Below are positions 3,161 through 15,481 of a stretch of DNA of 64,000 bases, one piece after another (position 1 is the stretch's first letter; the number at the start of each line of letters is the position of its first letter). The notes beneath the pieces are model-generated. The model ran no database searches and was not told the origin of the DNA. It saw only the letters and a program-made list of their open reading frames with translations. Both the position numbers and the translations under genes were made by a program. Location: positions 946-64,945 of the IMG/VR virus record IMGVR_UViG_3300049211_000031. One strand, given 5' to 3'. The stretch is from a virus. Lineage: Duplodnaviria > Heunggongvirae > Uroviricota > Caudoviricetes.

Positions 3161-3544
3161 ATGGCAAAAGTACAGATGTTAGCTAGATGGTCAGAGTTGT
3201 CAGTGAAACAAAATAATATTGACCAAGGAGAACAAGAACTTAAAAGACTCTTAGGAAACGATAATGAACAAAGCCTATATAGGACAGAAATTGTTCATGA
3301 ATATGGTCCAGTAGTGTTTGAAATGGATGATGTCCATCACTATAACAGAGCTAAGGAAAAAGGACATACAACAATTCATTTTAAGAATGGAGACAGTTTA
3401 GTGCTTAAAATTCCATACATTGAATTCTTAGAAATAGATGTTCAATATTCAGGAAAAACTATTAATGACTTCATTCCTATAGACTATATAGACCCTGAGG
3501 ATGAGGAAATTGATGAGGAAACAGATTCAGATTTAGAACTCTAA
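3161..3544 (+). CDS. hypothetical protein, acidic C-terminus
   Basis: ORF track. Confidence 0.8.
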   Translation: MAKVQMLARWSELSVKQNNIDQGEQELKRLLGNDNEQSLYRTEIVHEYGPVVFEMDDVHHYNRAKEKGHTTIHFKNGDSLVLKIPYIEFLEIDVQYSGKTINDFIPIDYIDPEDEEIDEETDSDLEL

Positions 3545-3552
3545 AAGAAAAA

Positions 3553-3584
3553 TTTGGAAAATTGAAAAAGTTTTCCTACCTTTG
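3553..3584 (+). promoter_or_regulatory. promoter of tRNA array 1
   Basis: TTTG 3553-3556, TACCTTTG 3577-3584, 20-nt spacer. Confidence 0.9.
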
Positions 3585-3611
3585 TGTTCAAATAAAGAAT
3601 AAAAAAGATTT

Positions 3612-3701
3612 ATGCAGTCAACAATCATTATAGTCGGTAGAGGAGCGGAGCGCACAATAAAATGCGGCTCAGGCGTTTCTATGTACTATGATGATATTTA
3701 A
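3612..3701 (+). CDS. attenuator leader peptide 1, MQSTIIIVGRGAERTIKCGSGVSMYYDDI
   Basis: 29-aa ORF between promoter and terminator; codons 5-17 are I,I,I,V,G,R,G,A,E,R,T,I,K, matching array 1 tRNAs. Confidence 0.85.
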   Translation: MQSTIIIVGRGAERTIKCGSGVSMYYDDI

Positions 3702-3762
3702 TTTTCCTTTAGTTTGTCATAACATCGAAGCTCCTGAGCCTTAAAAAAGCTTGGGAGTTTTT
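3624..3762 (+). promoter_or_regulatory. transcription attenuator 1 (protector, antiterminator, terminator)
   Basis: 1:2 ATCATTATAGT(3624-34)/ACTATGATGAT(3685-95) plus inner stems; 2:3 GGCTCAGGCGTTTC(3666-79)/GAAGCTCCTGAGCC(3727-40); 3:4 AAGCTCCTGAGC(3728-39)/GCTTGGGAGTTT(3749-60) plus T run. Confidence 0.85.
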
Positions 3763-3771
3763 GTTTTATAC

Positions 3772-3842
3772 ACTCTCGAAGCTTTAAAGTGAAGCTATAG
3801 GCTTTTAACCTATAGAACACGGGGCAGTACCGTGCGGGAGTA
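3772..3842 (+). tRNA. trnK: tRNA-Lys(UUU)
   Basis: cloverleaf; ATAGG-CT-TTT-AA-CCTAT; T-loop GGCAGTA. Confidence 0.9.
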
Positions 3843-3848
3843 CAATAA

Positions 3849-3921
3849 GGACACATAGTTTAATGGAAAAACATCACGCTACGAACGTGAAGAAGTAAAG
3901 GTTCGACCCCTTTTGTGTCCT
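3849..3921 (+). tRNA. trnR: tRNA-Arg(ACG)
   Basis: TCACG-CT-ACG-AA-CGTGA; acceptor GGACACA/TGTGTCC. Confidence 0.92.
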
Positions 3922-3922
3922 C

Positions 3923-3994
3923 AGAGCTATAGTTAAATGGATATAACAGCATCCTTCTAAGTTGCTATTCTGTGTTCGATTCACAGTAGCTCTA
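3923..3994 (+). tRNA. trnR: tRNA-Arg(UCU)
   Basis: GCATC-CT-TCT-AA-GTTGC; acceptor AGAGCTA/TAGCTCT. Confidence 0.9.
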
Positions 3995-4000
3995 CAACTT

Positions 4001-4071
4001 GCGTTACAAGGATTTCGATAGTCTACCTGACTTCCAATCAGGGGGGCGGGGTTTGACTCCCCGGTAGCGCA
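4001..4071 (+). tRNA. trnG: tRNA-Gly(UCC)
   Basis: CCTGA-CT-TCC-AA-TCAGG. Confidence 0.9.
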
Positions 4072-4076
4072 CAATA

Positions 4077-4148
4077 GCCCTTGTCGTCTAGTAGTTAGGA
4101 CGCTGCCCTTTCAAGGCGGAGAAGACGGAGCGTAACCGTTCGAGGGTA
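4077..4148 (+). tRNA. trnE: tRNA-Glu(UUC)
   Basis: CTGCC-CT-TTC-AA-GGCGG; T-loop AGCGTAA. Confidence 0.9.
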
Positions 4149-4153
4149 CATAT

Positions 4154-4226
4154 CGGCTCGTAGTTTAACTGGTTAAAACTTCCGGCTCATAACCGGATGT
4201 TCTCGGTTCAAGCCCGAGTGAGCCAA
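4154..4226 (+). tRNA. tRNA with CAU anticodon (Met, fMet or Ile2 unresolved)
   Basis: TCCGG-CT-CAT-AA-CCGGA; C1:A72 mismatch; only two G-C pairs at 30-31. Confidence 0.85.
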
Positions 4227-4231
4227 CAAAT

Positions 4232-4303
4232 TGCCTTATAGTAGAATGGTCAGCACGCATCCCTGATAAGGATGAAATCTTGGTTCAATTCCAAGTGAGG
4301 CAA
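4232..4303 (+). tRNA. trnI: tRNA-Ile(GAU)
   Basis: CATCC-CT-GAT-AA-GGATG. Confidence 0.92.
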
Positions 4304-4307
4304 CTAT

Positions 4308-4380
4308 AGGAAGTTCGTATAGTGGTTTAATACATCATCCTTACAAGATGAATTCCTGAGTTCGATTCTCAGACTTCCTA
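4308..4380 (+). tRNA. trnV: tRNA-Val(UAC)
   Basis: TCATC-CT-TAC-AA-GATGA; acceptor AGGAAGT/ACTTCCT. Confidence 0.92.
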
Positions 4381-4385
4381 CTTCT

Positions 4386-4459
4386 GGGGGTACATGTACC
4401 AAGGCTGGCGAGTTTGCCTTGCAAGCAGACTGTGGTCGTTTCGATTACGACTATCTCCA
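4386..4459 (+). tRNA. trnA: tRNA-Ala(UGC)
   Basis: TTTGC-CT-TGC-AA-GCAGA; G3:U70 alanine identity pair present. Confidence 0.9.
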
Positions 4460-4465
4460 CCTGAA

Positions 4466-4497
4466 TTTGGTAGATTCAAATATTTACCATATCTTTG
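4466..4497 (+). promoter_or_regulatory. promoter of tRNA array 2
   Basis: TTTG 4466-4469, TATCTTTG 4490-4497, 20-nt spacer. Confidence 0.9.
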
Positions 4498-4501
4498 TAT
4501 T

Positions 4502-4585
4502 ATGAAATTCGTGAAACAATATCTACTCTCCTATTTATCTAGCCTCAGTTATCCTGTGGCAGGGGAGTATATTGTCGGGTTTTAA
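4502..4585 (+). CDS. attenuator leader peptide 2, MKFVKQYLLSYLSSLSYPVAGEYIVGF (probably leaderless mRNA)
   Basis: 27-aa ORF; codons 7-17 YLLSYLSSLSY are exclusively Leu/Ser/Tyr, matching array 2. Confidence 0.88.
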   Translation: MKFVKQYLLSYLSSLSYPVAGEYIVGF

Positions 4586-4639
4586 CTATCTTAGGAATTT
4601 ACCGGGCTCCCCTGCTACTAAATACAGCAGGGGATTTTT
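4517..4639 (+). promoter_or_regulatory. transcription attenuator 2
   Basis: 1:2 CAATAT..ACTCTCCT(4517-32)/AGGGGAGTATATTG(4561-74); 2:3 GTGGCAGGGGAGT(4556-68)/GCTCCCCTGCTAC(4606-18); 3:4 TCCCCTGCT(4608-16)/AGCAGGGGA(4626-34) plus TTTTT. Confidence 0.88.
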
Positions 4640-4647
4640 ATTTATAT

Positions 4648-4721
4648 ACCTCCGTGGGCAAATAGAAAAGTCGCTAGTCTTAGAAACTAGAGTTTTGCGA
4701 GTGCAAGTCTCGCCGGGGGTA
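4648..4721 (+). tRNA. trnL: tRNA-Leu(UAG), short variable loop
   Basis: CTAGT-CT-TAG-AA-ACTAG; acceptor ACCTCCG/CGGGGGT, A73. Confidence 0.88.
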
Positions 4722-4724
4722 CAC

Positions 4725-4798
4725 AGCGGTGTAGGCTAATTGGTAACGCCGTCAGACTTAAAATCTGAAGTTTGTGAGTTCAAATCTCACCATCGCTA
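4725..4798 (+). tRNA. trnL: tRNA-Leu(UAA), short variable loop
   Basis: TCAGA-CT-TAA-AA-TCTGA. Confidence 0.9.
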
Positions 4799-4803
4799 CA
4801 TAA

Positions 4804-4886
4804 GGAGAGTAAATCAGCATGAAGCTGGGGCGTCCTGCTAAGACGTTCGTACTATTGAGTATGTGGATCAGGGCCACTGCTCTCCG
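4804..4886 (+). tRNA. trnS: tRNA-Ser(GCU)
   Basis: CGTC-CT-GCT-AA-GACG; long variable arm; G73. Confidence 0.85.
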
Positions 4887-4891
4887 CATTT

Positions 4892-4976
4892 GGAGGATTG
4901 CCAGAGCTGGTAATGGCGCTGTCTTGAAAACAGAGGGCGGGTAATACCGACAGGAGTTCGATTCTTCTATCCTCCG
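4892..4976 (+). tRNA. trnS: tRNA-Ser(UGA)
   Basis: CTGT-CT-TGA-AA-ACAG; long variable arm; G73. Confidence 0.92.
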
Positions 4977-4983
4977 CTTTATT

Positions 4984-5066
4984 GGGAGTTTATACCGTAG
5001 GGGTAGCGGGCCTGACTGTAAATCAGGTGGCTTTGGTCTCGGGTGGTTCGACGCCATCAGCTCCCA
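4984..5066 (+). tRNA. trnY: tRNA-Tyr(GUA)
   Basis: CTGA-CT-GTA-AA-TCAG; extended variable arm. Confidence 0.92.
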
Positions 5067-5079
5067 CTTTAAAATAAAA

Positions 5080-5111
5080 TTTGGAAAATTCAAAAATTTG
5101 TTTTACCTTTG
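5080..5111 (+). promoter_or_regulatory. promoter of tRNA array 3
   Basis: TTTG 5080-5083, TACCTTTG 5104-5111, 20-nt spacer; AAATTTGGAAAATT shared with promoter 1. Confidence 0.9.
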
Positions 5112-5115
5112 CACT

Positions 5116-5193
5116 ATGATTAACAACTGGCATAATACATTTACCTTCACTCCCAATCAACCTGATCGGGCTAGGGTGTATTGTGCTAACTAA
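5116..5193 (+). CDS. attenuator leader peptide 3, MINNWHNTFTFTPNQPDRARVYCAN (probably leaderless mRNA)
   Basis: 25-aa ORF; codons 3-17 use only N,W,H,T,F,P,Q,D, the eight specificities of array 3. Confidence 0.9.
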   Translation: MINNWHNTFTFTPNQPDRARVYCAN

Positions 5194-5246
5194 GGATTTT
5201 CTTACGTTTTTCCATACACCCTCAGTCAAAAAGCTGAGGGTTTTTT
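5131..5246 (+). promoter_or_regulatory. transcription attenuator 3
   Basis: 1:2 CATAATACAT(5131-40)/GTGTATTGTG(5176-85) plus inner CCT/AGG and CCC/GGG; 2:3 AGGGTGTAT(5173-81)/ATACACCCT(5214-22); 3:4 CCCTCAGT(5219-26)/GCTGAGGG(5233-40) plus TTTTTT. Confidence 0.88.
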
Positions 5247-5254
5247 ATTTTAAT

Positions 5255-5329
5255 CGAGTAGTGTCGGGAATGGTAATTCCGTCTTCCCTTGGAAGGAAGG
5301 GCATGCTAGTTCGAGCCTAGTCTACTCGA
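5255..5329 (+). tRNA. trnP: tRNA-Pro(UGG)
   Basis: CTTCC-CT-TGG-AA-GGAAG; C1-G72, A73. Confidence 0.9.
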
Positions 5330-5336
5330 CTTTAAC

Positions 5337-5407
5337 GGTGTATTGGTGAAATGGTATCATACTTGTCTGTCTAACAAGTGTCCTCGGATCGTAACCGTGA
5401 TACACCG
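5337..5407 (+). tRNA. trnD: tRNA-Asp(GUC)
   Basis: CTTGT-CT-GTC-TA-ACAAG; G73; unusual U37. Confidence 0.88.
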
Positions 5408-5412
5408 CAATT

Positions 5413-5483
5413 GGGAAATTAGCTCAAAAGTAGAGCGAGAAGCTGTTAACTTCAGGACGGTGGAGCGTTACCATCATTTCCCG
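5413..5483 (+). tRNA. trnN: tRNA-Asn(GUU)
   Basis: GAAG-CT-GTT-AA-CTTC; G73. Confidence 0.9.
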
Positions 5484-5493
5484 CTTAACACAC

Positions 5494-5594
5494 TAATGGG
5501 TGGTGGAATTTGGCAGACGCACCTCCTCGTCTCGGTGGCGCAGATAAAGGAAATAAATAACCTCTGCATGTACGTTCAAATCGTACCCCATTAG
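5494..5594 (+). ncRNA. atypical tRNA-like RNA (GUC at the anticodon position, C33/U37, ~31-nt variable arm)
   Basis: acceptor TAATGGG/CCCATTA+G73; Leu-type D arm; CCTCC-TC-GTC-TC-GGTGG; T arm GTACG-TTCAAAT-CGTAC. Confidence 0.7.
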
Positions 5595-5600
5595 CTTAAC

Positions 5601-5674
5601 GCCTGCTGTAGCTCAACTGGTAGAGCAATCCCCTTGTAAGGGAAAGGTTGTCGATTCGATTTCGACCTCAGGCT
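5601..5674 (+). tRNA. trnT: tRNA-Thr(UGU), irregular acceptor stem
   Basis: TCCC-CT-TGT-AA-GGGA; 8-nt 5' strand GCCTGCTG against 7-nt CTCAGGC. Confidence 0.8.
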
Positions 5675-5726
5675 CACATAAAGAAGTTAAGGATGCGCAC
5701 GTAGAAATATGCCTTAATTTCTGGAA

Positions 5727-5797
5727 GGGGAGATAACTCAATGGTAGAGTAGAGGCCTGAAGAGCCTTAAATGCAAGTTCGACTCTTGCTCTCCCCA
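5727..5797 (+). tRNA. trnF: tRNA-Phe(GAA)
   Basis: AGGC-CT-GAA-GA-GCCT; acceptor GGGGAGA/TCTCCCC. Confidence 0.92.
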
Positions 5798-5804
5798 CTT
5801 ATAA

Positions 5805-5875
5805 TGCCTTGTAGTAGAAAAGTAACACGTCGGGTTTTGACCCCGAAGAAGATTGGGCGGTACAATCCAAGGCAT
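5805..5875 (+). tRNA. trnQ: tRNA-Gln(UUG)
   Basis: TCGGG-TT-TTG-AC-CCCGA; U1-A72. Confidence 0.88.
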
Positions 5876-5877
5876 CT

Positions 5878-5948
5878 GTGACTGAAGCTTTTGAGTAAAG
5901 TGCCTCTCTGTGAAAGAGGAGAATGGAGTGCGAGTCTCCACTGTCACC
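5878..5948 (+). tRNA. trnH: tRNA-His(GUG), no encoded G-1
   Basis: CCTCT-CT-GTG-AA-AGAGG; C73; base at -1 is T. Confidence 0.88.
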
Positions 5949-5952
5949 TTAT

Positions 5953-6025
5953 ACGGGATTCGTATAGTGGTTATTATCTCGGTCTCCAAAACCGTAGGAC
6001 AGATGTTCGAATCGTCTATCCCGTG
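5953..6025 (+). tRNA. trnW: tRNA-Trp(CCA)
   Basis: TCGGT-CT-CCA-AA-ACCG; G73. Confidence 0.9.
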
Positions 6026-6027
6026 CT

Positions 6028-6053
6028 AAAGCTCCTTAAAAGGGAGCTTTTTT
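6028..6053 (+). terminator. intrinsic terminator closing the tRNA region
   Basis: AAAGCTCCT-taaaa-GGGAGCTTT plus T run. Confidence 0.85.
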
Positions 6054-6082
6054 CATTTATTTTAAAAATAGTTTGTAAAATT

Positions 6083-6114
6083 CTTGACTTTGCCAAAAAT
6101 TTTCTGTAGCTTTG
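6083..6114 (+). promoter_or_regulatory. Bacteroidota-type promoter with no substantial ORF downstream
   Basis: CTTG 6083-6086, TAGCTTTG 6107-6114, 20-nt spacer. Confidence 0.6.
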
Positions 6115-6234
6115 TCAGCGCGGAGTCGCACTAACAAACCAACAGAGTGTCTGTTGAGCGCGAGAGTCGCAGAGAGTTTAGAATATGGGTAGAGAAGAGG
6201 TGTTAAGATAAGATTTAAGAAAATTACCAAATTA

Positions 6235-6266
6235 TTTGGAAAATTACAATAATAGTTCTATCTTTG
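6235..6266 (+). promoter_or_regulatory. promoter of the pre-terminase operon
   Basis: TTTG 6235-6238, TATCTTTG 6259-6266, 20-nt spacer. Confidence 0.85.
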
Positions 6267-6281
6267 TTAAGAATTTGAAAA

Positions 6282-6623
6282 ATGCAACTAGTAAAGATAC
6301 GAAAGAAAACCAGTAGTAAAGTAGAACAAGCTAAGACAATGATTAGCATTTTCTGTTTACTAACAAATATCAAACTGTCAGATACAGAGTTGACAGTACT
6401 TGCATATTTCATGGTGTATAAAATAAATAGAAAAACAAAAGATCTTATTCTAAGTGCAGGTATTCTAAAATCAGACGACAGTTTAAAGAACACTCTGTCT
6501 AAATTAAAGAAATTTGGAATGCTTGTTAGGAATATAGACAGTAAGGAGTATTCTCTAAGAAAGGAATTAGACTTTACACTCACTCCTGCAATGGGCGTTC
6601 TTATAAAAATTGATAATGCTTAA
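6282..6623 (+). CDS. putative winged-helix DNA-binding protein
   Basis: basic, helix-helix-beta hairpin pattern; family inferred by eye. Confidence 0.6.
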   Translation: MQLVKIRKKTSSKVEQAKTMISIFCLLTNIKLSDTELTVLAYFMVYKINRKTKDLILSAGILKSDDSLKNTLSKLKKFGMLVRNIDSKEYSLRKELDFTLTPAMGVLIKIDNA

Positions 6624-7138
6624 TGAAGGATATTAAGATAGTTTCAAGATTGGTAGCAAGAGAGTTTAACTATGATCCAGAGCTAACAGAGGATGTGAAT
6701 GACTTCTTCTGGAAAGAAACAAGAAAGATGCTATCTTCTATGGAATACACTTCAGTTTCAATCAAATGTCTTTGTACTCTCACTGTCTCTAAGAGAAAAG
6801 TAGATTACATAATAAAAAAGTTGATAGGAAAGATAAGGAATATTCGTAAGTCTACAAGATATAAAGAAAGTACAACAGCCCTCTTATTAGAAGTGAACTA
6901 TGACAAGCTAAGAAAAGCTTTAAAACAAAGAAATATATTAGCTAAACAATACTATGAAAATTACACTAAAAGGATTAGCAGAGTACGTGAAGCTTCTTCC
7001 AGCAATAATAGCGAACTCGGACAAGATATTAGAGGCAACATGGAATCAGGTGAAGAACGAGTTGGGGATGCTGAAAGAAGAGGAACAACAGGAAATAGTG
7101 AGGAGACGATTAATATGTGCAACATGCCCTTTCAATAG
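6623..7138 (+). CDS. putative HU/IHF-like DNA-binding protein with C-terminal tail overlapping the next gene
   Basis: N-terminal helical, basic region; crAss-like gene order. Confidence 0.55.
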   Translation: MKDIKIVSRLVAREFNYDPELTEDVNDFFWKETRKMLSSMEYTSVSIKCLCTLTVSKRKVDYIIKKLIGKIRNIRKSTRYKESTTALLLEVNYDKLRKALKQRNILAKQYYENYTKRISRVREASSSNNSELGQDIRGNMESGEERVGDAERRGTTGNSEETINMCNMPFQ

Positions 7139-7412
7139 CTCAAACGCTGTAAAGGATGGATATAAAACAAATAGGATTGATGAGCATTGTATAATGTGTG
7201 GATGTACAATAACAAGAAAAACAAACTCTCTTTCTTCAGATTGTGGAATATCTTGTTGTAATCCCGATTCAGAATGTAATTGTGCTAAAGAAAACGTTAA
7301 AAAATTTAATACAGAGAATAATATAGTAATTGAACCCAAATGGTTCAAATTTAAAAATCAAGAAGATGAGCAACAAACAAAGAATTCAGACGAAGCAACA
7401 GATATTCCATAA
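6954..7412 (+). CDS. Cys-rich putative Zn-binding protein
   Basis: RRRLICATCPF, CIMCGC, DCGISCC motifs. Confidence 0.75.
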   Translation: MKITLKGLAEYVKLLPAIIANSDKILEATWNQVKNELGMLKEEEQQEIVRRRLICATCPFNSSNAVKDGYKTNRIDEHCIMCGCTITRKTNSLSSDCGISCCNPDSECNCAKENVKKFNTENNIVIEPKWFKFKNQEDEQQTKNSDEATDIP

Positions 7413-7590
7413 CTTTGTGGAGATAGTAGAGTTGTTCCCTCAATACACCATAGCTCAACATATGGTACATGTATTACGCCCTCAAACAGGATGTTACCAG
7501 TGGACTGATGAAGAGCTTCTAAGAAAGTTTGAGAAATATAGGGATGAGCTTGAAACTGAATTAGTAGATAATATTAAAGAAGACGAGTAA
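7366..7590 (+). CDS. hypothetical protein (MSNKQRIQ...)
   Basis: ATG 7366 within ORF 7330..7590. Confidence 0.7.
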   Translation: MSNKQRIQTKQQIFHNFVEIVELFPQYTIAQHMVHVLRPQTGCYQWTDEELLRKFEKYRDELETELVDNIKEDE

Positions 7591-7763
7591 TGTTTCTAGC
7601 ATTCTTAGAATACTTTCCAAGTTACTTTAAATTCTATAGATGGATGAGAGGAGGTAATTGGAAATACGTTGTGTGTAAATTCCCAGCACCAATAAATGGA
7701 TGTTGGGTACACAACTCAGAAGCACTCTGGTGGGAACTTATTGAGAAAGAAGAGCAATATTAA
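7590..7763 (+). CDS. small aromatic-rich protein, 57 aa, absent from ORF track
   Basis: TAATG coupling; MFLAFLEYFPSYFKFYRWMRGGNW... Confidence 0.65.
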   Translation: MFLAFLEYFPSYFKFYRWMRGGNWKYVVCKFPAPINGCWVHNSEALWWELIEKEEQY

Positions 7764-7766
7764 AAA

Positions 7767-7925
7767 ATGCTAACTAGTTTTAAATGGTTTAGAAAATTAT
7801 CTAAAGGTTCTTGGTATTTGTACAGAAGTACAGGGCAGCTTCCAGGACTTTTTGGATGCTGGTGGTCAAGAACTAAACATCCAGAGCATAGATATTATTA
7901 TCTCTTAAGAGAAGAACATTACTAA
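7767..7925 (+). CDS. small aromatic-rich protein, 52 aa, likely paralog of 7590-7763
   Basis: MLTSFKWFRKLSKGSWYLY...GCWW. Confidence 0.65.
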   Translation: MLTSFKWFRKLSKGSWYLYRSTGQLPGLFGCWWSRTKHPEHRYYYLLREEHY

Positions 7926-7929
7926 AAAT

Positions 7930-8003
7930 TGCGGGGTGGACTGGAGAGGTGCCAGCTCGGTCTCATAAGCCGGATAACGAGAGTTCGATTCTCTCTCCCG
8001 CAA
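7930..8003 (+). tRNA. trnM: tRNA-Met(CAU), initiator-like
   Basis: acceptor TGCGGGG/TCCCGCA+A73; CT-CAT-AA loop; resembles bacterial fMet tRNAs. Confidence 0.8.
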
Positions 8004-8005
8004 CT

Positions 8006-8203
8006 ATGAAAATAGAAGTAGCCTATAACCCTCTATTTGATTATAACGGTCCATTCATTGAGAATGGGTATACATCAACTTTTATAGATTTCAGTGAGTA
8101 TGCACAAACTAACAATACAAGTTCCTGTCTACCAGTTCAAGTGTGTGGTGATAATCGACAAGGATGTAGAGAGGAAAGCGAACTCCTTCATAAGGAGAAA
8201 TAA
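8006..8203 (+). CDS. possible hypothetical protein overlapping the next gene by 104 nt
   Basis: ATG directly after tRNA; large overlap makes it doubtful. Confidence 0.35.
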   Translation: MKIEVAYNPLFDYNGPFIENGYTSTFIDFSEYAQTNNTSSCLPVQVCGDNRQGCREESELLHKEK

Positions 8204-8513
8204 GTGGAATGAAGACCTTCTTATTAAGGATGGTGACCAAGTCCACGGGTATGCAATAAATCCCGGACTTGTACACACCTACTACATCTTCTACTCAGAA
8301 GAAAGTGTAACACCCAATATTATAACACATGAAGTGTCGCATTTAGTAGACTATGTAATGGGTGACAAAGGTATGGTGGACACAGAAACAAGAGCCTACC
8401 TATCTGGATTTATAAATGAAAAGATATTTGATTACGTATTAAAGAATAAACTACTTATTAATAAATGGCTGGTAAAAGAAAACCTCAACTTGACAGAAAA
8501 CCTTCAAAAGTAG
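8100..8513 (+). CDS. putative zincin-like metalloprotein (HExxH)
   Basis: ITHEVSHL...ETRAYL motif. Confidence 0.7.
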   Translation: MHKLTIQVPVYQFKCVVIIDKDVERKANSFIRRNKWNEDLLIKDGDQVHGYAINPGLVHTYYIFYSEESVTPNIITHEVSHLVDYVMGDKGMVDTETRAYLSGFINEKIFDYVLKNKLLINKWLVKENLNLTENLQK

Positions 8514-8647
8514 AATCTGACACTTGGAAGCTTTCTCCAAGACAAATATTAATTCAAAAGCTAAATATGCTTTTATATGCAGCTCAGATTAATAGAATTA
8601 GTGATGTAGAAGCTAATGAATTATTAAGAATACTTTCGCATATGTAA
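8465..8647 (+). CDS. hypothetical protein
   Basis: ORF ending just before tRNA-Cys. Confidence 0.5.
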   Translation: MAGKRKPQLDRKPSKVESDTWKLSPRQILIQKLNMLLYAAQINRISDVEANELLRILSHM

Positions 8648-8650
8648 TCT

Positions 8651-8720
8651 GCACAGTTTAGTCTTGGAGGCTATTGCGTCTGCAAAACGTTTGGAATCAG
8701 TTCGAATCTGATACTGTGCT
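8651..8720 (+). tRNA. trnC: tRNA-Cys(GCA)
   Basis: GCGT-CT-GCA-AA-ACGT; acceptor GCACAGT/ACTGTGC; U73; short D loop. Confidence 0.88.
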
Positions 8721-8733
8721 CACAAAAACCAAT

Positions 8734-9015
8734 ATGACTAAAGAACGCATATTTATTGTTGGTGATGAAACAAGGATTCTTCAAGAAGAGGTGAGTCTTA
8801 GGCCTTATAATCTCACTGATGCAGATATTATTCATGCAGCTACAGTAATGTCTATTGCTAGATTTATATGGGATTACGAAGCTCGCCTTCAGGATCCTTC
8901 CTTCTATGCAGATATCCCTACATTTGAAATCCCAGAATATCCTAAAAAAGAACCATCGTTCTTTGATAGATTAAAAAGAAAACTAACATGGCTAAGAAAG
9001 TTAATTCATATATAA
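8734..9015 (+). CDS. hypothetical protein (MTKERIF...)
   Basis: ATG 8734 downstream of tRNA-Cys, within ORF 8674..9015. Confidence 0.7.
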   Translation: MTKERIFIVGDETRILQEEVSLRPYNLTDADIIHAATVMSIARFIWDYEARLQDPSFYADIPTFEIPEYPKKEPSFFDRLKRKLTWLRKLIHI

Positions 9016-11436: not shown

Positions 11437-14121
11437 ATGGTAAGCTCATTTACTAACATAAACCCTAATACAAGTCTCCCACCACAGATGATTCCGTTGT
11501 CAAGAAAGACGGACGCTTGGAAGGAAGACACTATGAATTGCCTAGAAAATATTGGTAGTTCCCAATATATTCACAACCTTTCTCTTATTGAAAATTATGA
11601 GATGGTGAAAGGTAAGTTCATATTTAAGCATTATTTGGAACAAGATGAATATGCTGATATGGTACATCAGCTTTCAAGAGAGTTTGAAGTTCCAAACTAC
11701 CTACGTCACTACGATATCATCTCTCAAGTAATCAATACTCTCTCGGGCGAATTCCAAAAGCGACCAGATAATTTTCGTGTTAAAGGCTTCGATGAGAATA
11801 CTACAAATAACTACATACGTGAAAAGTCAAGACTTCTTACAGAGTATGTAGCTCAAGAAATAAATAAAGAAATTGATCTTCGCCTGTCTGAAATGGGCTT
11901 TGATCCTTATAAGGAAGATTTTCAGTCTCCAGAAGAACAACAAGAATACACACAAGAGATTGATCAACAACGACAAGCTCTTACTCCTCCAGAGATTGAA
12001 AAGTACATGAAGTATAAGTGGCAGGATGCCGCTGAAATATGGGGACAACATCAGCTCGAACTAGATAGACATAGGTTCTCTCTACCTGAAAAGGAAAGAA
12101 AAGAGTTTGAGGATATGTTGATTGCTGACAGATGTTTCCGTCATTTCTACCTCACCTCTAATGGGTATAACCAAGAAACCTGGAATCCTGTTAACACATT
12201 CTTTCATAAATCCCCAGAAGTTGATTATATTGAAGAAGGAGACTATGTTGGTCGTATTCTTTTTCTTACAATTGGAGACGTTATTGATCGTTATGGGCAT
12301 CTCTTAACAAAAAGACAGCTTAAGAAACTTGAGAAGCAAAGGGATGTAATGGGAGCTGAAGTTGGTAGAGATGGGTATGGAATTCCCTATGGATCTATTG
12401 TTCCATACGCTAACTATCCAGACGGCAAACTTATAACAGACGCATTAGGATTTAATCCTGCAGCTCCAATTCCTACACTTAACGAATCATTCCTATCAGA
12501 TACTTCAGAAATTAATCCATTTTATCTTAACACTAGAGGATATGTAAAAGTAGTAGAGGCTTATTGGAAGTCTCAAAGGATGATAGGACAAATATGTTAT
12601 ATTGATCCTGAAACAGGGCTATTAGCTAAAGGTCTAGTAGATGAAACGTTTGTTCTTCCAGAAGGTTTCAAAGAAGCTAACTCCTCTCTCTACGATAATG
12701 AGAATACAGTAAACACTGTATGTTGGACATGGGTAAATGAAACTTGGAGTGGTAAGAAAATATGCAAGCATGGAACGGACATGTTAGAAGATTTATTCTT
12801 TGATGTCAAACCCGTGCCGTTTCAGTTTAAAGGGGATCACAATCCTTACTACTGTAAACTCCCTGTATGTGGACAAGTTTTCAGTAATAGGAACTCTCAA
12901 TCAATGTCTTTAGTGGATTTGATGAAACCTTGGCAAATTGGGTTTAACGTAGCTGCTAATCAGCTTTATCAAATCATGCAACGTGAAATTGGTCGCTTCC
13001 TAATTATGGATGTGAACATGCTTACTGGTATGAAAGATTGGGGTGGTGAGAATGCTTATGAGAAGTTTTTATTGGTTGCCAAGTCATTAGGTGTTACATT
13101 TGTTGATACAAGTCCTCAAAACCTTAAAGGGGCTAACATATCTAACACAATGCCCAGAGATGTAGACTTAGATGAGTCTTCTCGTATGATTTCTAGGGCT
13201 AAACTTATGGAGTTTTTTGAACAACGTGCCCTATCACAAGTTGGTATCACTCCACAACGTTTAGGTAATGTTGCTGCTTCAGAAACTGCCACAGGCACAC
13301 AACAGGCTGTCACTCAATCTTTCGCACAAACAGAGAGCTACTTCACAAGATTTAACGAGTATAAGAAGCGTACGTTCAAGATGAATCTTGATATAGCTCA
13401 ATATGTACAGTCTAAAGAACAAGACGTCACTATTACATATACTAAGAGTGATATGAGTAGAGCCTTTATTAAGATTAACGGCTTAGACCTATTGTTAGCT
13501 GATCTACATGTGTATGTATCTAATTCTCAAGAGGACGTACGTCAACTTGAGACATTACGTCAACTGTTTATGACTAATAATAATGTAGGAGCTACTCCTC
13601 TTGATCTTGCTACTGTTATTACTTCTAATAGTCCTGCAGAAATTAAAGTACAGCTTGAAGTTGCTGCTGCTAATAATGAGAAGAAATACCAAGAACAAAT
13701 GCAGCTTGAACAGCAAAAGATGGAAACTGAAAAACAAATTGCTCAAGCTAAGATGGACTTTGAAGCAGAACAGAACCAACTTGACAGGGAGAATGAACTT
13801 CAAAAAGCCTATATTGCATCGTTCTCACGTCAGGATGATAACACCAAAGATCAAGACGCAACAGGTATTCCTGATATATTAGAATACGATAAACTTGCTG
13901 TCACCGTAGATGCTCAAACTCAGAAACTTCAACTTGAAAGAGAAAAAGCTCAAAATGATAGAGAGAAGTTTATAATAGACCAAGAAATGAAATTAAGAGA
14001 GCTCGCTCTTAAGCAAAGAGAGCTAGAAGTGCGTCAAAGAATTGAGCAAGAAAAGGTAAAAGTAGCAAAAATAAACAAAAACAAATACGATAAAAAGACA
14101 CCTTCTAAGAAGAAAAAATAA
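11437..14121 (+). CDS. portal protein
   Basis: follows TerL; 894 aa with coiled-coil C-terminus; crAss-like portal features (HYDII, NPVNTF, SLVDLMKPWQ). Confidence 0.88.
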   Translation: MVSSFTNINPNTSLPPQMIPLSRKTDAWKEDTMNCLENIGSSQYIHNLSLIENYEMVKGKFIFKHYLEQDEYADMVHQLSREFEVPNYLRHYDIISQVINTLSGEFQKRPDNFRVKGFDENTTNNYIREKSRLLTEYVAQEINKEIDLRLSEMGFDPYKEDFQSPEEQQEYTQEIDQQRQALTPPEIEKYMKYKWQDAAEIWGQHQLELDRHRFSLPEKERKEFEDMLIADRCFRHFYLTSNGYNQETWNPVNTFFHKSPEVDYIEEGDYVGRILFLTIGDVIDRYGHLLTKRQLKKLEKQRDVMGAEVGRDGYGIPYGSIVPYANYPDGKLITDALGFNPAAPIPTLNESFLSDTSEINPFYLNTRGYVKVVEAYWKSQRMIGQICYIDPETGLLAKGLVDETFVLPEGFKEANSSLYDNENTVNTVCWTWVNETWSGKKICKHGTDMLEDLFFDVKPVPFQFKGDHNPYYCKLPVCGQVFSNRNSQSMSLVDLMKPWQIGFNVAANQLYQIMQREIGRFLIMDVNMLTGMKDWGGENAYEKFLLVAKSLGVTFVDTSPQNLKGANISNTMPRDVDLDESSRMISRAKLMEFFEQRALSQVGITPQRLGNVAASETATGTQQAVTQSFAQTESYFTRFNEYKKRTFKMNLDIAQYVQSKEQDVTITYTKSDMSRAFIKINGLDLLLADLHVYVSNSQEDVRQLETLRQLFMTNNNVGATPLDLATVITSNSPAEIKVQLEVAAANNEKKYQEQMQLEQQKMETEKQIAQAKMDFEAEQNQLDRENELQKAYIASFSRQDDNTKDQDATGIPDILEYDKLAVTVDAQTQKLQLEREKAQNDREKFIIDQEMKLRELALKQRELEVRQRIEQEKVKVAKINKNKYDKKTPSKKKK

Positions 14122-14218: not shown

Positions 14219-15481
14219 ATGGATGGATTAGAAACAACTATTGTAAATATTGACGAATCAGCACTAGAGCAGCTGTTCGATGAAACTCCAGAGAAGACAG
14301 TGAATGCTGACACTCTTATTGGAGGACGTAAAGAAAAAACATCCTCTCAGAATGAAGAAAATGAAGTTGAAGAGGAAGAAGTAGAAGAAGCACCAAAGAA
14401 AAAGGCTGCACCTAAACAACCTAAAGTAAGACAAGAAGAAGCTATCATTGACCTCAATGATAACGACATTGAAGACTTCAACGAAAACAACGACGAAGAA
14501 GAAAATGAAGTAGAAGAAGAGGAAGAAGAAAAGCCTAAGAAACCTACAAAGAAATCTGAATCTGCTCAGAAAGCTCAAGAGGCTGAAGAAAAGAAAGGAG
14601 AAGTATTCTCAGTATTAAAACACACTGTAGATTATCTAGTTGAGCAGGGCGCGTGGGAAGATTTTGAAGGACGTGAAGAAATGGAACTTGATGAGGAAGC
14701 TTATGCTAAACTTGTTATGGAACAAGATAAGCGTCGTGTTCAAGGAATGTTTGAAGAACTAGTTGACAGTACTGGTCCATTTGGAAAAGCTATTATTGAC
14801 TATGTAAAAAATGGTGGAAACCCTGATGAGATTATAGACCTATTTAAAGAACAAAAACAAATTGATAGTATTAATATCAATACTCTTGAAGGTCAAAAAG
14901 AAATCATCAAGCATTACTACACAGAAGTGATGGGATGGAAACTAGAAAAAGCAGAAAAATATATTTCTAATCTTGTTCTTTCAGATGAATTAGAAGCTGA
15001 AGCTCAGGAAGTAAAAGAGAATATAAGCACATTCTATCAAAAGGAAACTCAGCGCCTAAACCAAGAGCGTGAAGCTTTTGCTAAGAGACAAGAGGAAGCA
15101 GAACAGGCTTTTGAATCTAATATTCGTTCTGCTGTTAAAGAACGCAAAGATCTGACATCTTCTGAGCGTAAAACTGTCGAAGACTATCTTCTACGTTATG
15201 ATCAAAAGTTACCAAATGGTAATATGGTGAATAAGTTCTACGTTAATTTCGCTAAAATGCAGGCCAATCCTGCTGATTATATTGACCTTGTACTTTTTGT
15301 AATGGATAAACAAAAATTCGTTCAGAAAGTAGCTACAAAGGAAAAAACAGAAGCTGCTGCTAGCGCCTTTAAATTTATAAAAGGTAATGGTGCAGTATCT
15401 GCTAAAAAAGGCTCTTCTTATGAGCAAATTAGAAAGAATGATAAAGTCACCGGGTTTGACTGGGGGCTTCCTTCAAAATAA
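14219..15481 (+). CDS. putative capsid scaffolding protein
   Basis: highly acidic N-terminus, helical, lies between portal and MCP. Confidence 0.7.
   Translation: MDGLETTIVNIDESALEQLFDETPEKTVNADTLIGGRKEKTSSQNEENEVEEEEVEEAPKKKAAPKQPKVRQEEAIIDLNDNDIEDFNENNDEEENEVEEEEEEKPKKPTKKSESAQKAQEAEEKKGEVFSVLKHTVDYLVEQGAWEDFEGREEMELDEEAYAKLVMEQDKRRVQGMFEELVDSTGPFGKAIIDYVKNGGNPDEIIDLFKEQKQIDSININTLEGQKEIIKHYYTEVMGWKLEKAEKYISNLVLSDELEAEAQEVKENISTFYQKETQRLNQEREAFAKRQEEAEQAFESNIRSAVKERKDLTSSERKTVEDYLLRYDQKLPNGNMVNKFYVNFAKMQANPADYIDLVLFVMDKQKFVQKVATKEKTEAAASAFKFIKGNGAVSAKKGSSYEQIRKNDKVTGFDWGLPSK

Follow-up and report, generated by a model that had tools for sequence, protein, structure and literature searches.

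Attenuation of transcription through a translated leader peptide is a classical mode of control in enterobacterial amino-acid operons, some of which have multivalent leaders, as in ilvGMEDA (Ile, Leu and Val codons) and thrL (Thr and Ile), and others of which include trpL, hisL, pheL, and leuL. A gene of the translation apparatus is controlled in the same way by the pheM leader of the E. coli pheST operon, which encodes phenylalanyl-tRNA synthetase and is attenuated in feedback to charged tRNA. Phage tRNA arrays are viewed either as a compensation for codon usage or as replacements for host tRNAs that are lost in infection or cut by anticodon nucleases. To our knowledge, leader-peptide attenuation is known for amino-acid biosynthesis and for a few synthetase or resistance genes but not for tRNA genes, and the full-text literature searched, the coverage of which is incomplete and leaves such an absence unproven, contained no description of tRNA genes controlled by a leader peptide, although leaders upstream of the E. 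coli tRNA-Phe genes may have been studied earlier. Here, we describe a candidate for this missing category in a 64,000-nucleotide stretch of viral DNA (“the window”; positions 946 to 64,945 of the 128,945-bp IMG/VR record IMGVR_UViG_3300049211_000031), where a 29-codon open reading frame (ORF) beginning at position 3612 precedes nine tRNA genes. With a probability of roughly 80%, based on sequence comparison and folding models, we interpret this arrangement (“Unit 1”) as a trp-type ribosome-mediated transcription attenuator that senses tRNA supply ahead of a nine-tRNA operon.

The mechanism of pheL attenuation is described in PMC3082878. Unit 1 resembles such amino-acid operon attenuators in its promoter-proximal ORF with control codons, in the 1:2, 2:3, and 3:4 helices predicted between four regions of its leader, in the predicted release of region 2 by a stalled ribosome, and in that one leader may sense several amino acids. 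It differs from them in being phage-borne and in regulating tRNAs instead of biosynthetic enzymes: only tRNA genes (3772-4459) lie downstream of its leader, and neither biosynthetic enzymes nor synthetases, as expected in an amino-acid operon, are encoded there. Whereas the leaders of amino-acid operons contain runs of one codon, that of Unit 1 lists up to nine tRNA species with one or two codons each, its codon families follow isoacceptors, and three such units partition nearly the whole genetic code within a single genome. Unlike the enterobacterial leaders, it also belongs to a Bacteroidota host and has no Shine-Dalgarno sequence. The pheM leader is similar in exerting attenuation on a translation component for the sensed amino acid, but it is cellular, regulates a synthetase, and senses one amino acid, while the product of Unit 1 is tRNA itself and its sensor resolves isoacceptors. 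T-box riboswitches of Firmicutes bind uncharged tRNA without a ribosome, through a specifier loop and a T-box motif (PMC4695836). They share with Unit 1 a terminator/antiterminator switch, a codon-anticodon reading of tRNA state, and translation-related target genes, but in Unit 1 a translating ribosome would read many tRNAs in series, and no T-box or other cis-regulatory Rfam match was found in 3400-9000 at E-values up to 1, where the sub-threshold hits over tRNA genes, Plastid-ycf2 (minus strand) and rpsL_pseudo at 4409-4515, are chance matches. Viral tRNA clusters have been surveyed in PMC6409571. Like other phage tRNA arrays, that of Unit 1 is a large phage-encoded tRNA set, but earlier accounts treat these arrays as constitutive cargo, whereas here a built-in sensor would tie their transcription to decoding speed. 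What is new relative to known attenuators is the use of tRNA genes as the target, the listing of many species once or twice each, and a set of units that together partition most of the code.

Three consecutive units lie within 3550-6060 of the window, each starting with a Bacteroidota-type promoter and a short ORF, after which come a GC-rich hairpin with its U-tract and a run of tRNA genes. Unit 1, encoded on the plus strand, runs from its promoter (TTTG, 20 nt, TAccTTTG; 3553-3584, detected by pattern search) through the 29-codon ORF and a terminator to the nine tRNAs, with nothing else in between and the next promoter at 4466. Transcription is predicted to start about 7 nt past the promoter, giving an A-rich 5′ untranslated region of about 20 nt in which no Shine-Dalgarno sequence was found. 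Promoters were called with what we take to be the consensus of the Bacteroides promoter literature. The pattern TTTG-N17-23-TAnnTTTG occurs at 15 sites in the window, against 3.3 expected and with none of 100 shuffles reaching 15, and the sites at 3553, 4466, 5080, and 6235 have an extended TTTGG(A/T)A..AT form in common. A terminator placed between a promoter and the sole genes which that promoter serves is sensible only if termination is conditional.

The leader ORF (3612-3701) was read directly from the sequence as 29 codons that begin with the ATG at 3612 and are closed by a TAA stop at 3699-3701. The original prediction, made from the DNA letters alone, had quoted codons 5-17 (3624-3662) as ATC ATT ATA GTC GGT AGA GGA GCG GAG CGC ACA ATA AAA, had assigned 12 of these 13 to amino acids of the downstream array with ACA (Thr) as the sole exception, and had pointed out that both Arg codon families (AGA and CGC) mirror two tRNA-Arg genes (UCU and ACG). 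The codons are exact as quoted, and both assignments stand on rereading the sequence and calling the tRNAs. ATA occurs twice in this sensor run, and 10 of its 13 codons are readable by the array under strict wobble rules. In the best 12-codon window of the leader, 11 codons belong to the array set. Of random coding segments of equal length drawn from the phage, 1.6% do as well (P ~0.016), a modest value because 45% of the residues in the phage proteins belong to the set K, R, G, E, M, I, V, A. Among 253 short ORFs in the window, one attains the Unit 1 score; this is presumably the leader, whose length is within the size range counted. The neighboring units display much stronger matches (P < 5e-6 each): the Unit 2 leader (4502-4585) encodes the run YLLSYLSSLSY ahead of an array (4648-5067) of Leu, Leu, Ser, and Tyr tRNAs, and the Unit 3 leader (5116-5193) encodes NNWHNTFTFTPNQPD ahead of an array (5255-6026) of Pro, Asp, Asn, Thr, Phe, Gln, His, and Trp tRNAs. 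Both of these mRNAs are probably leaderless, since their ATG lies 4-5 nt past the -7 box. When all three leaders were scored against all three arrays, the diagonal of the resulting 3 × 3 matrix stood out sharply (scores of 11, 11, and 12, against 1-7 elsewhere). It is through Units 2 and 3 and the comparative tests presented below that the Unit 1 match becomes compelling, and among these lines of sequence evidence the comparative one is decisive. Several sensor codons are scarce in the phage’s own genes (GTC 4%, GCG 5%, CGC 6%), which may have to do with the demands of the RNA helices or, alternatively, with a preference for codons that ribosomes read slowly.

The array expected behind this leader (Lys, Arg-ACG, Arg-UCU, Gly, Glu, CAU, Ile, Val, Ala) was recovered with ARAGORN and Rfam. 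Both tools called tRNA-Arg (ACG) at 3849-3922, tRNA-Arg (UCU) at 3923-3995, tRNA-Glu (UUC) at 4077-4149, a tRNA with anticodon CAU at 4154-4227, tRNA-Ile (GAU) at 4232-4304, and tRNA-Val (UAC) at 4308-4381, and ARAGORN called tRNA-Gly (UCC) at 4001-4072. The first gene, a tRNA-Lys (UUU) at 3772-3842 with atypical D and T loops, was identified by Rfam (RF00005, 37.8 bits, above the gathering score) and by its UUU anticodon loop; at the matching position, ARAGORN called Lys-ttt in six related loci (designated by L-numbers throughout; here L003, L004, L082, L084, L085, and L087). The last gene, an atypical tRNA-Ala (UGC) at 4388-4459, scored 22 bits with Rfam, below the gathering score, and was called as Ala-tgc by ARAGORN at a 90% threshold, a setting at which a weak Ala-tgc was found to be kept in position in five relatives (L004, L082, L084, L085, and L087). 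These first and last tRNAs thus both lack canonical D-loop and T-loop sequences and obtain low finder scores, and the position of both is conserved across relatives. Every Unit-1-type leader contains 1-3 ATA codons within codons 2-18, with ATA present where there is a CAU tRNA, and the CAU tRNA at 4154-4227 is probably a tRNA-Ile2 (lysidine-modified, reading AUA) rather than a tRNA-Met.

Folding of the Unit 1 leader (z -4.9 as a whole) delineated four regions that can form three alternative helices. Region 1 (3623-3655), which corresponds to codons 4-15, is the 5′ arm of hairpin 1:2, and region 2 (3662-3695) is its 3′ arm (dG -32 to -34, z -5.7 to -7.0). The core of region 2 (3666-3685) can instead pair with region 3 (3721-3739), as supported by folding and alignment, to form an antiterminator with a dG of -22 as a duplex and -30.5 in context (z -5.1 to -6.1). 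Region 3, delineated by folding and covariation, is at the same time the 5′ arm of the terminator, which it forms with the 3′ arm at 3749-3765 (dG -17.7, z -3.6). Region 4 as a whole (3749-3767, by folding) comprises this arm and the U-tract TTTTTGTTTT (3758-3767), which ends 5 nt ahead of tRNA-Lys. A protector hairpin between 3624-3654 and 3663-3695 had been proposed beforehand, together with an alternative pairing of 3666-3684 with 3722-3740; both recur in our folds, the former within one or two bases and the latter as 3666-3685 with 3721-3739.

We then modeled a translating ribosome as a mask, forcing its footprint to be single-stranded codon by codon and deriving the probability of the terminator stem from the partition function, i.e., at equilibrium. 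This probability was 0.89 without a ribosome, dropped to 0.0-0.2 when the A site was placed on codons 6-14, and returned to 0.8-0.9 from codon 15 to the stop, an outcome unchanged over five footprint sizes. The responsive codons in the model are thus 6-14 (3627-3653), and the non-cognate ACA (codon 15) lies outside of them. Of the original proposal that codons 5-17 form the sensor, the central part is borne out, stalls on codons 6-14 abolishing the modeled terminator, while the last three codons (15-17) fall beyond the responsive window. Units 2 and 3 of the window switch likewise in the model.

Eight contigs carry a Unit-1-type leader, with the position of the ORF conserved. The order of the residues varies between these homologues (e.g., IIIVGRGAERTIK, VINIGGIEIIREAGRK, VINIVGRIEAGRIEK, NIREAIGGIEAGRK), but the composition of I, V, G, R, A, E, and K is kept. 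After the sensor run, all eight homologues share the motif GGCUCNGG, invariant except for its sixth base; the version in the window, GGCUCAGG, lies in the region 2 core at 3666-3685. In seven of the eight, region 2 is complementary to the terminator 5′ arm (dG -14.6 to -24.3, z -3.1 to -5.5), and in seven of the eight it is also complementary to the sensor codons (z -2.3 to -5.7). Substitutions across the homologues are compensated, as where GGCUCAGG/CCUGAGCC becomes GGCUCCGG/CCGGAGCC. Over the eight homologues, 75% of cells are paired in helix 1:2, compared to 32-51% in slid controls, and 78% in helix 2:3, compared to 32-49%, with 8 pairs of the latter helix changed on both sides and its covariation score reached by 0 of 500 shuffles, although the structure used for this count was taken from the window sequence and is therefore somewhat favored.

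Broader comparisons relied on relatives gathered via terminase homologues (>160 loci), protein-encoding contigs, and tblastn against phages, which yielded about 20 distinct contigs with tRNA arrays upstream of the terminase. Leaders were defined by a rule blind to amino acids: the ORF had to begin with the first ATG found no more than 45 nt past a promoter match, span 15-45 codons, and have a tRNA no farther than 200 nt away. This rule returned 33 units from 17 loci. Leaders that look real but escaped the strict promoter pattern are those of L018 units A and C, L019, L031, L153, L146 unit 3, L004 unit 2, and L085 units 1 and 2; a relaxed -7 box regained L018 unit A and L085 unit 1, and the other missed leaders were left out of the statistics. 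Across these 33 units, the amino acid of an array tRNA was encoded within leader codons 2-18 in 169 of 180 cases, compared to 146 of 447 when the tRNA was absent (odds ratio 32). In each of the 11 loci with at least two units, no permutation scored as high as the true pairing of leaders and arrays (joint P 6.7e-7), and the signal is frame-specific, as 61% of residues belong to the set in the ORF frame and 29% and 27% in the other two. The match extends to isoacceptors: in 21 of 21 cases with the gene present, versus 5 of 45 with the gene absent, the leader has the corresponding codons, CGN for Arg-ACG/GCG and AGR for Arg-UCU.

The most telling of these sequence comparisons is with lineages in which the tRNAs are partitioned in another way. 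Differently partitioned arrays with matching leaders were found in L018, L019, L112, L146, L148, L153, and L083. In L018, for instance, one leader encodes H, Y, R (CGC), P, Q, and L ahead of Pro, Gln, His, Arg-ACG, Leu, and Tyr tRNAs, and another encodes N, W, F, A, T, D, C, G, and R (AGA) ahead of Ala, Gly, Asp, Asn, Trp, Thr, Arg-UCU, Phe, and Cys tRNAs. In L019, the second-type array gains Met, Lys, Ile, CAU, and Val genes, and its leader gains M, K, I, ATA, and V codons.

The system is also present, in other partitions, in two cultured phages. The Lys/Arg/Gly/Ile unit of Leptolyngbya phage Lbo-JY46 (PP438436.1) includes genes for Asn, Asp, and Cys tRNAs and has their codons in its leader, and Arg-ACG has shifted, along with its CGT codon, to the Pro/Thr/Phe/Gln/His/Trp unit. 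Cellulophaga phage phi4:1 (NC_021788.1, L170), whose terminase is 31% identical, encodes the run QRLHLQELEQP ahead of Pro, Glu, Gln, His, Leu, Leu, and Arg-ACG tRNAs, and agrees with the pattern of Arg isoacceptors. Its gp075 (15259-15378, minus strand), annotated as “hypothetical protein”, is rich in K, T, G, I, V, D, A, R (AGA), and Y and precedes Ala, Lys, Ile, Gly, CAU, Asp, Thr, Val, Arg-UCU, CAU, and Tyr tRNAs; from this sequence match, gp075 is most likely the leader peptide of a second tRNA unit. Another phi4:1 candidate, gp076 (13149-13250, minus strand), was rejected as a leader because it is a spurious ORF over an unannotated tRNA-Ser (UGA). Because two cultured phages carry the system, it is directly testable.

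Unit 1 combines a promoter-proximal ORF, a terminator, an antiterminator that overlaps the 3′ part of the ORF, cognate codons, and an in silico placement of these codons in which a stall would matter. The attenuator function put forward in the original prediction is supported by this layout, by three exclusive helices with covariation, by the footprint model, and by a co-variation of leader and array that reaches down to the Arg isoacceptors. In the mechanism that we propose, host RNA polymerase would start at the promoter at 3553-3584 and transcribe the 29-codon leader. If the leader were untranslated, or if a ribosome moved quickly to its stop codon, region 2 would be held in hairpin 1:2 or covered by the ribosome; with region 2 unavailable, terminator 3:4 would form and transcription would end at 3767, just short of tRNA-Lys. 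A ribosome that is slow on codons ~6-14 (Ile, Ile-AUA, Val, Gly, Arg-AGA, Gly, Ala, Glu, and Arg-CGC) would instead keep region 1 open, and the freed region 2 would pair with the terminator 5′ arm, preventing the terminator and letting polymerase enter the array. The array tRNAs would thus probably be made only when ribosomes read the leader codons slowly. We infer leader translation, its coupling to transcription, and the direction and size of the response from sequence and modeling. Since the sensor codons are those read by the downstream tRNAs, among them the two Arg isoacceptors and the reader of AUA, such a circuit would act as a negative feedback on decoding capacity, in which tRNAs are produced while their codons are read slowly and shut off once the supply suffices.

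Several observations weigh against this interpretation. The codon match of Unit 1 is, by itself, only modestly improbable (P ~0.016), and GTC and GGT require four-way U34 reading by the array tRNAs. Codons 15-17 (ACA, ATA, and AAA) lie outside the modeled responsive window, and the sensing of Lys is left unexplained by the equilibrium model because the only Lys codon of the sensor (AAA-17) is among them. For many Unit 2 and Unit 3 homologues, as for Lbo-JY46 and phi4:1, the equilibrium model fails to yield a switch, and no convincing 2:3 duplex was found in L085. The leaders of L003 and L086 keep Ala codons (L003 also Val and L086 also Lys) although the corresponding tRNAs were undetected in their arrays, and amino acids of absent tRNAs still appear in leaders in one third of cases overall (146/447). 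The nominal (Fisher) P value overstates independence because units and loci share ancestry, and the fairer measure is provided by about eight distinct partitions together with the within-locus permutations. Finally, an added tRNA cannot relieve a stall that results from amino-acid starvation. We counted the equilibrium mask model as support only for the window’s own units and the close Unit-1 family. Relatives without an equilibrium switch fit only a kinetic picture based on truncated transcripts; when such transcripts were modeled, the codon at which the ribosome starts to occlude region 2 coincided, in most relatives, with the end of the cognate-codon run.

Starvation is central to the alternative that survives best, a classical amino-acid-supply attenuator that would sense shortage of Ile, Val, Gly, Arg, Ala, Glu, or Lys through uncharged tRNA, with the array merely co-regulated. 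The architecture equals that of amino-acid operon attenuators, and a stalled ribosome cannot tell a missing tRNA from an uncharged one, yet we regard this alternative as unlikely: its feedback would be futile, as extra tRNA does not relieve starvation, and it requires neither that Arg codon families track isoacceptor genes (the 21/21 versus 5/45 above) nor that AUA accompanies the CAU tRNA. The leaders’ content moreover follows the tRNA partition and not metabolic pathways, and the tracking of isoacceptors argues that selection sees tRNA supply instead of amino-acid supply.

It is very unlikely that the hairpins are constitutive, acting as a terminator of upstream transcription, as RNA-processing signals, or as a pause site, behind an ORF that is untranslated or matches the array fortuitously. 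The value of P ~0.016 for Unit 1 by itself would allow for this, and translation of an ORF that lacks a Shine-Dalgarno sequence is something we infer, but the terminator is preceded by a promoter and separated from it by nothing but the ORF, the match is frame-specific and recurs in three units, 17 loci, and two cultured phages with other partitions, and region 2 is kept complementary to both regions 1 and 3, with covariation. Frame specificity also bears on a ribosome-independent sensor, in which, as in a T-box with multiple specifiers, the codon run and the anticodons of (uncharged) tRNAs would pair directly. Such codons are complementary to the array anticodons by definition, but they stand in frame after an ATG with a stop just past region 2, the Rfam search described above returned no T-box or other cis-regulatory match, and the binding of nine tRNAs to one 40-nt stretch buried in hairpin 1:2 is implausible, so that this mode of sensing is hardly credible. 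Least probable of all is a functional small peptide constraining the leader’s composition, for although the position and length of the ORF are conserved, the order of its residues is shuffled in homologues while the composition is kept, this composition shifts with the downstream tRNA set, and the C-terminal half is dictated by RNA helices.

If Unit 1 is a ribosome-mediated attenuator sensing tRNA supply, it would show how phages regulate their tRNA arrays, represent a naturally occurring decoding-speed sensor able to tell single isoacceptors apart, and link tRNA cargo to tRNA-targeting host defenses. We further suggest, tentatively and with somewhat less than even confidence, that the three leaders form an isoacceptor-resolved monitor of the tRNA pool, an ancient on-demand circuit for counter-defense or tRNA homeostasis that is widespread in crAss-like and other large Bacteroidota phages. 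Host tRNAs would be destroyed by anticodon nucleases or other tRNA-targeting defenses, or through phage shut-off of host RNA, ribosomes would slow on the affected codons, and only the array with the replacement tRNAs would be switched on. At a practical level, a leader sequence predicts the tRNAs of its transcription unit, which helps in annotating atypical tRNAs missed by standard finders (such as Lys, Ala, Ser-GCU, and Val in the window and its relatives), and accounts for small “hypothetical proteins” annotated within tRNA arrays, such as gp075 of phi4:1.

The carrier of Unit 1 is a large uncultured crAss-like phage of Bacteroidota. Its terminase and portal, like its head proteins, have matches in PHROG head-and-packaging families, and in relatives the capsid genes contain the Pfam Crass_capsid domain. 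One related locus, L169, from a Chitinophaga sp. YR573 assembly, includes a related terminase, portal, and Crass_capsid set amid bacterial SusC/SusD and ECF sigma/FecR genes, a gene content that suggests a crAss-like element which has integrated or decayed, and that points to the Chitinophagaceae as the clade’s hosts. A DNA similarity search of 3400-6200 against GenBank phages gave tRNA-sized matches only, and no relatives were found by searching with the small flanking proteins (3161-3541 and 6623-7135).

Other observations concern tRNA-like elements and genes in or near the arrays. Within the Unit 2 array, 4802-4890 resembles a tRNA-Ser, with a GCU anticodon loop and matching acceptor ends, and was missed by ARAGORN and Rfam; a Ser-gct is found here in relatives, and AGC and AGT are among the codons of the Unit 2 leader. 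Array 3 contains an aberrant tRNA-like element with a long extra arm (5490-5595), which is kept in L003 (6290-6392). Two solitary tRNAs, at 7930-8004 (CAU) and 8651-8721 (Cys-GCA), are located between protein genes and have neither leader nor terminator, placing Met and Cys outside the attenuated units in the window’s lineage. In L018, L019, L148, and Lbo-JY46, a Cys gene is found within a unit and Cys codons in the leader of that same unit. Four relatives (L018 5533-5601, L019 ~2585, L112 3891, and L159 62) carry single-tRNA “Glu units”, in which a Glu-rich short ORF extends from a promoter into a tRNA-Glu; no terminator was detectable in these four, and they may represent a different attenuator design. 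Finally, protein genes occur inside the tRNA arrays of relatives (L082 5285-5629 and 2814-3251, and L168 3562-4389), where one insert is annotated as a homing endonuclease and one ORF is HNH-like by eye; in L082, one of these inserts stands where the Unit 3 leader would be.

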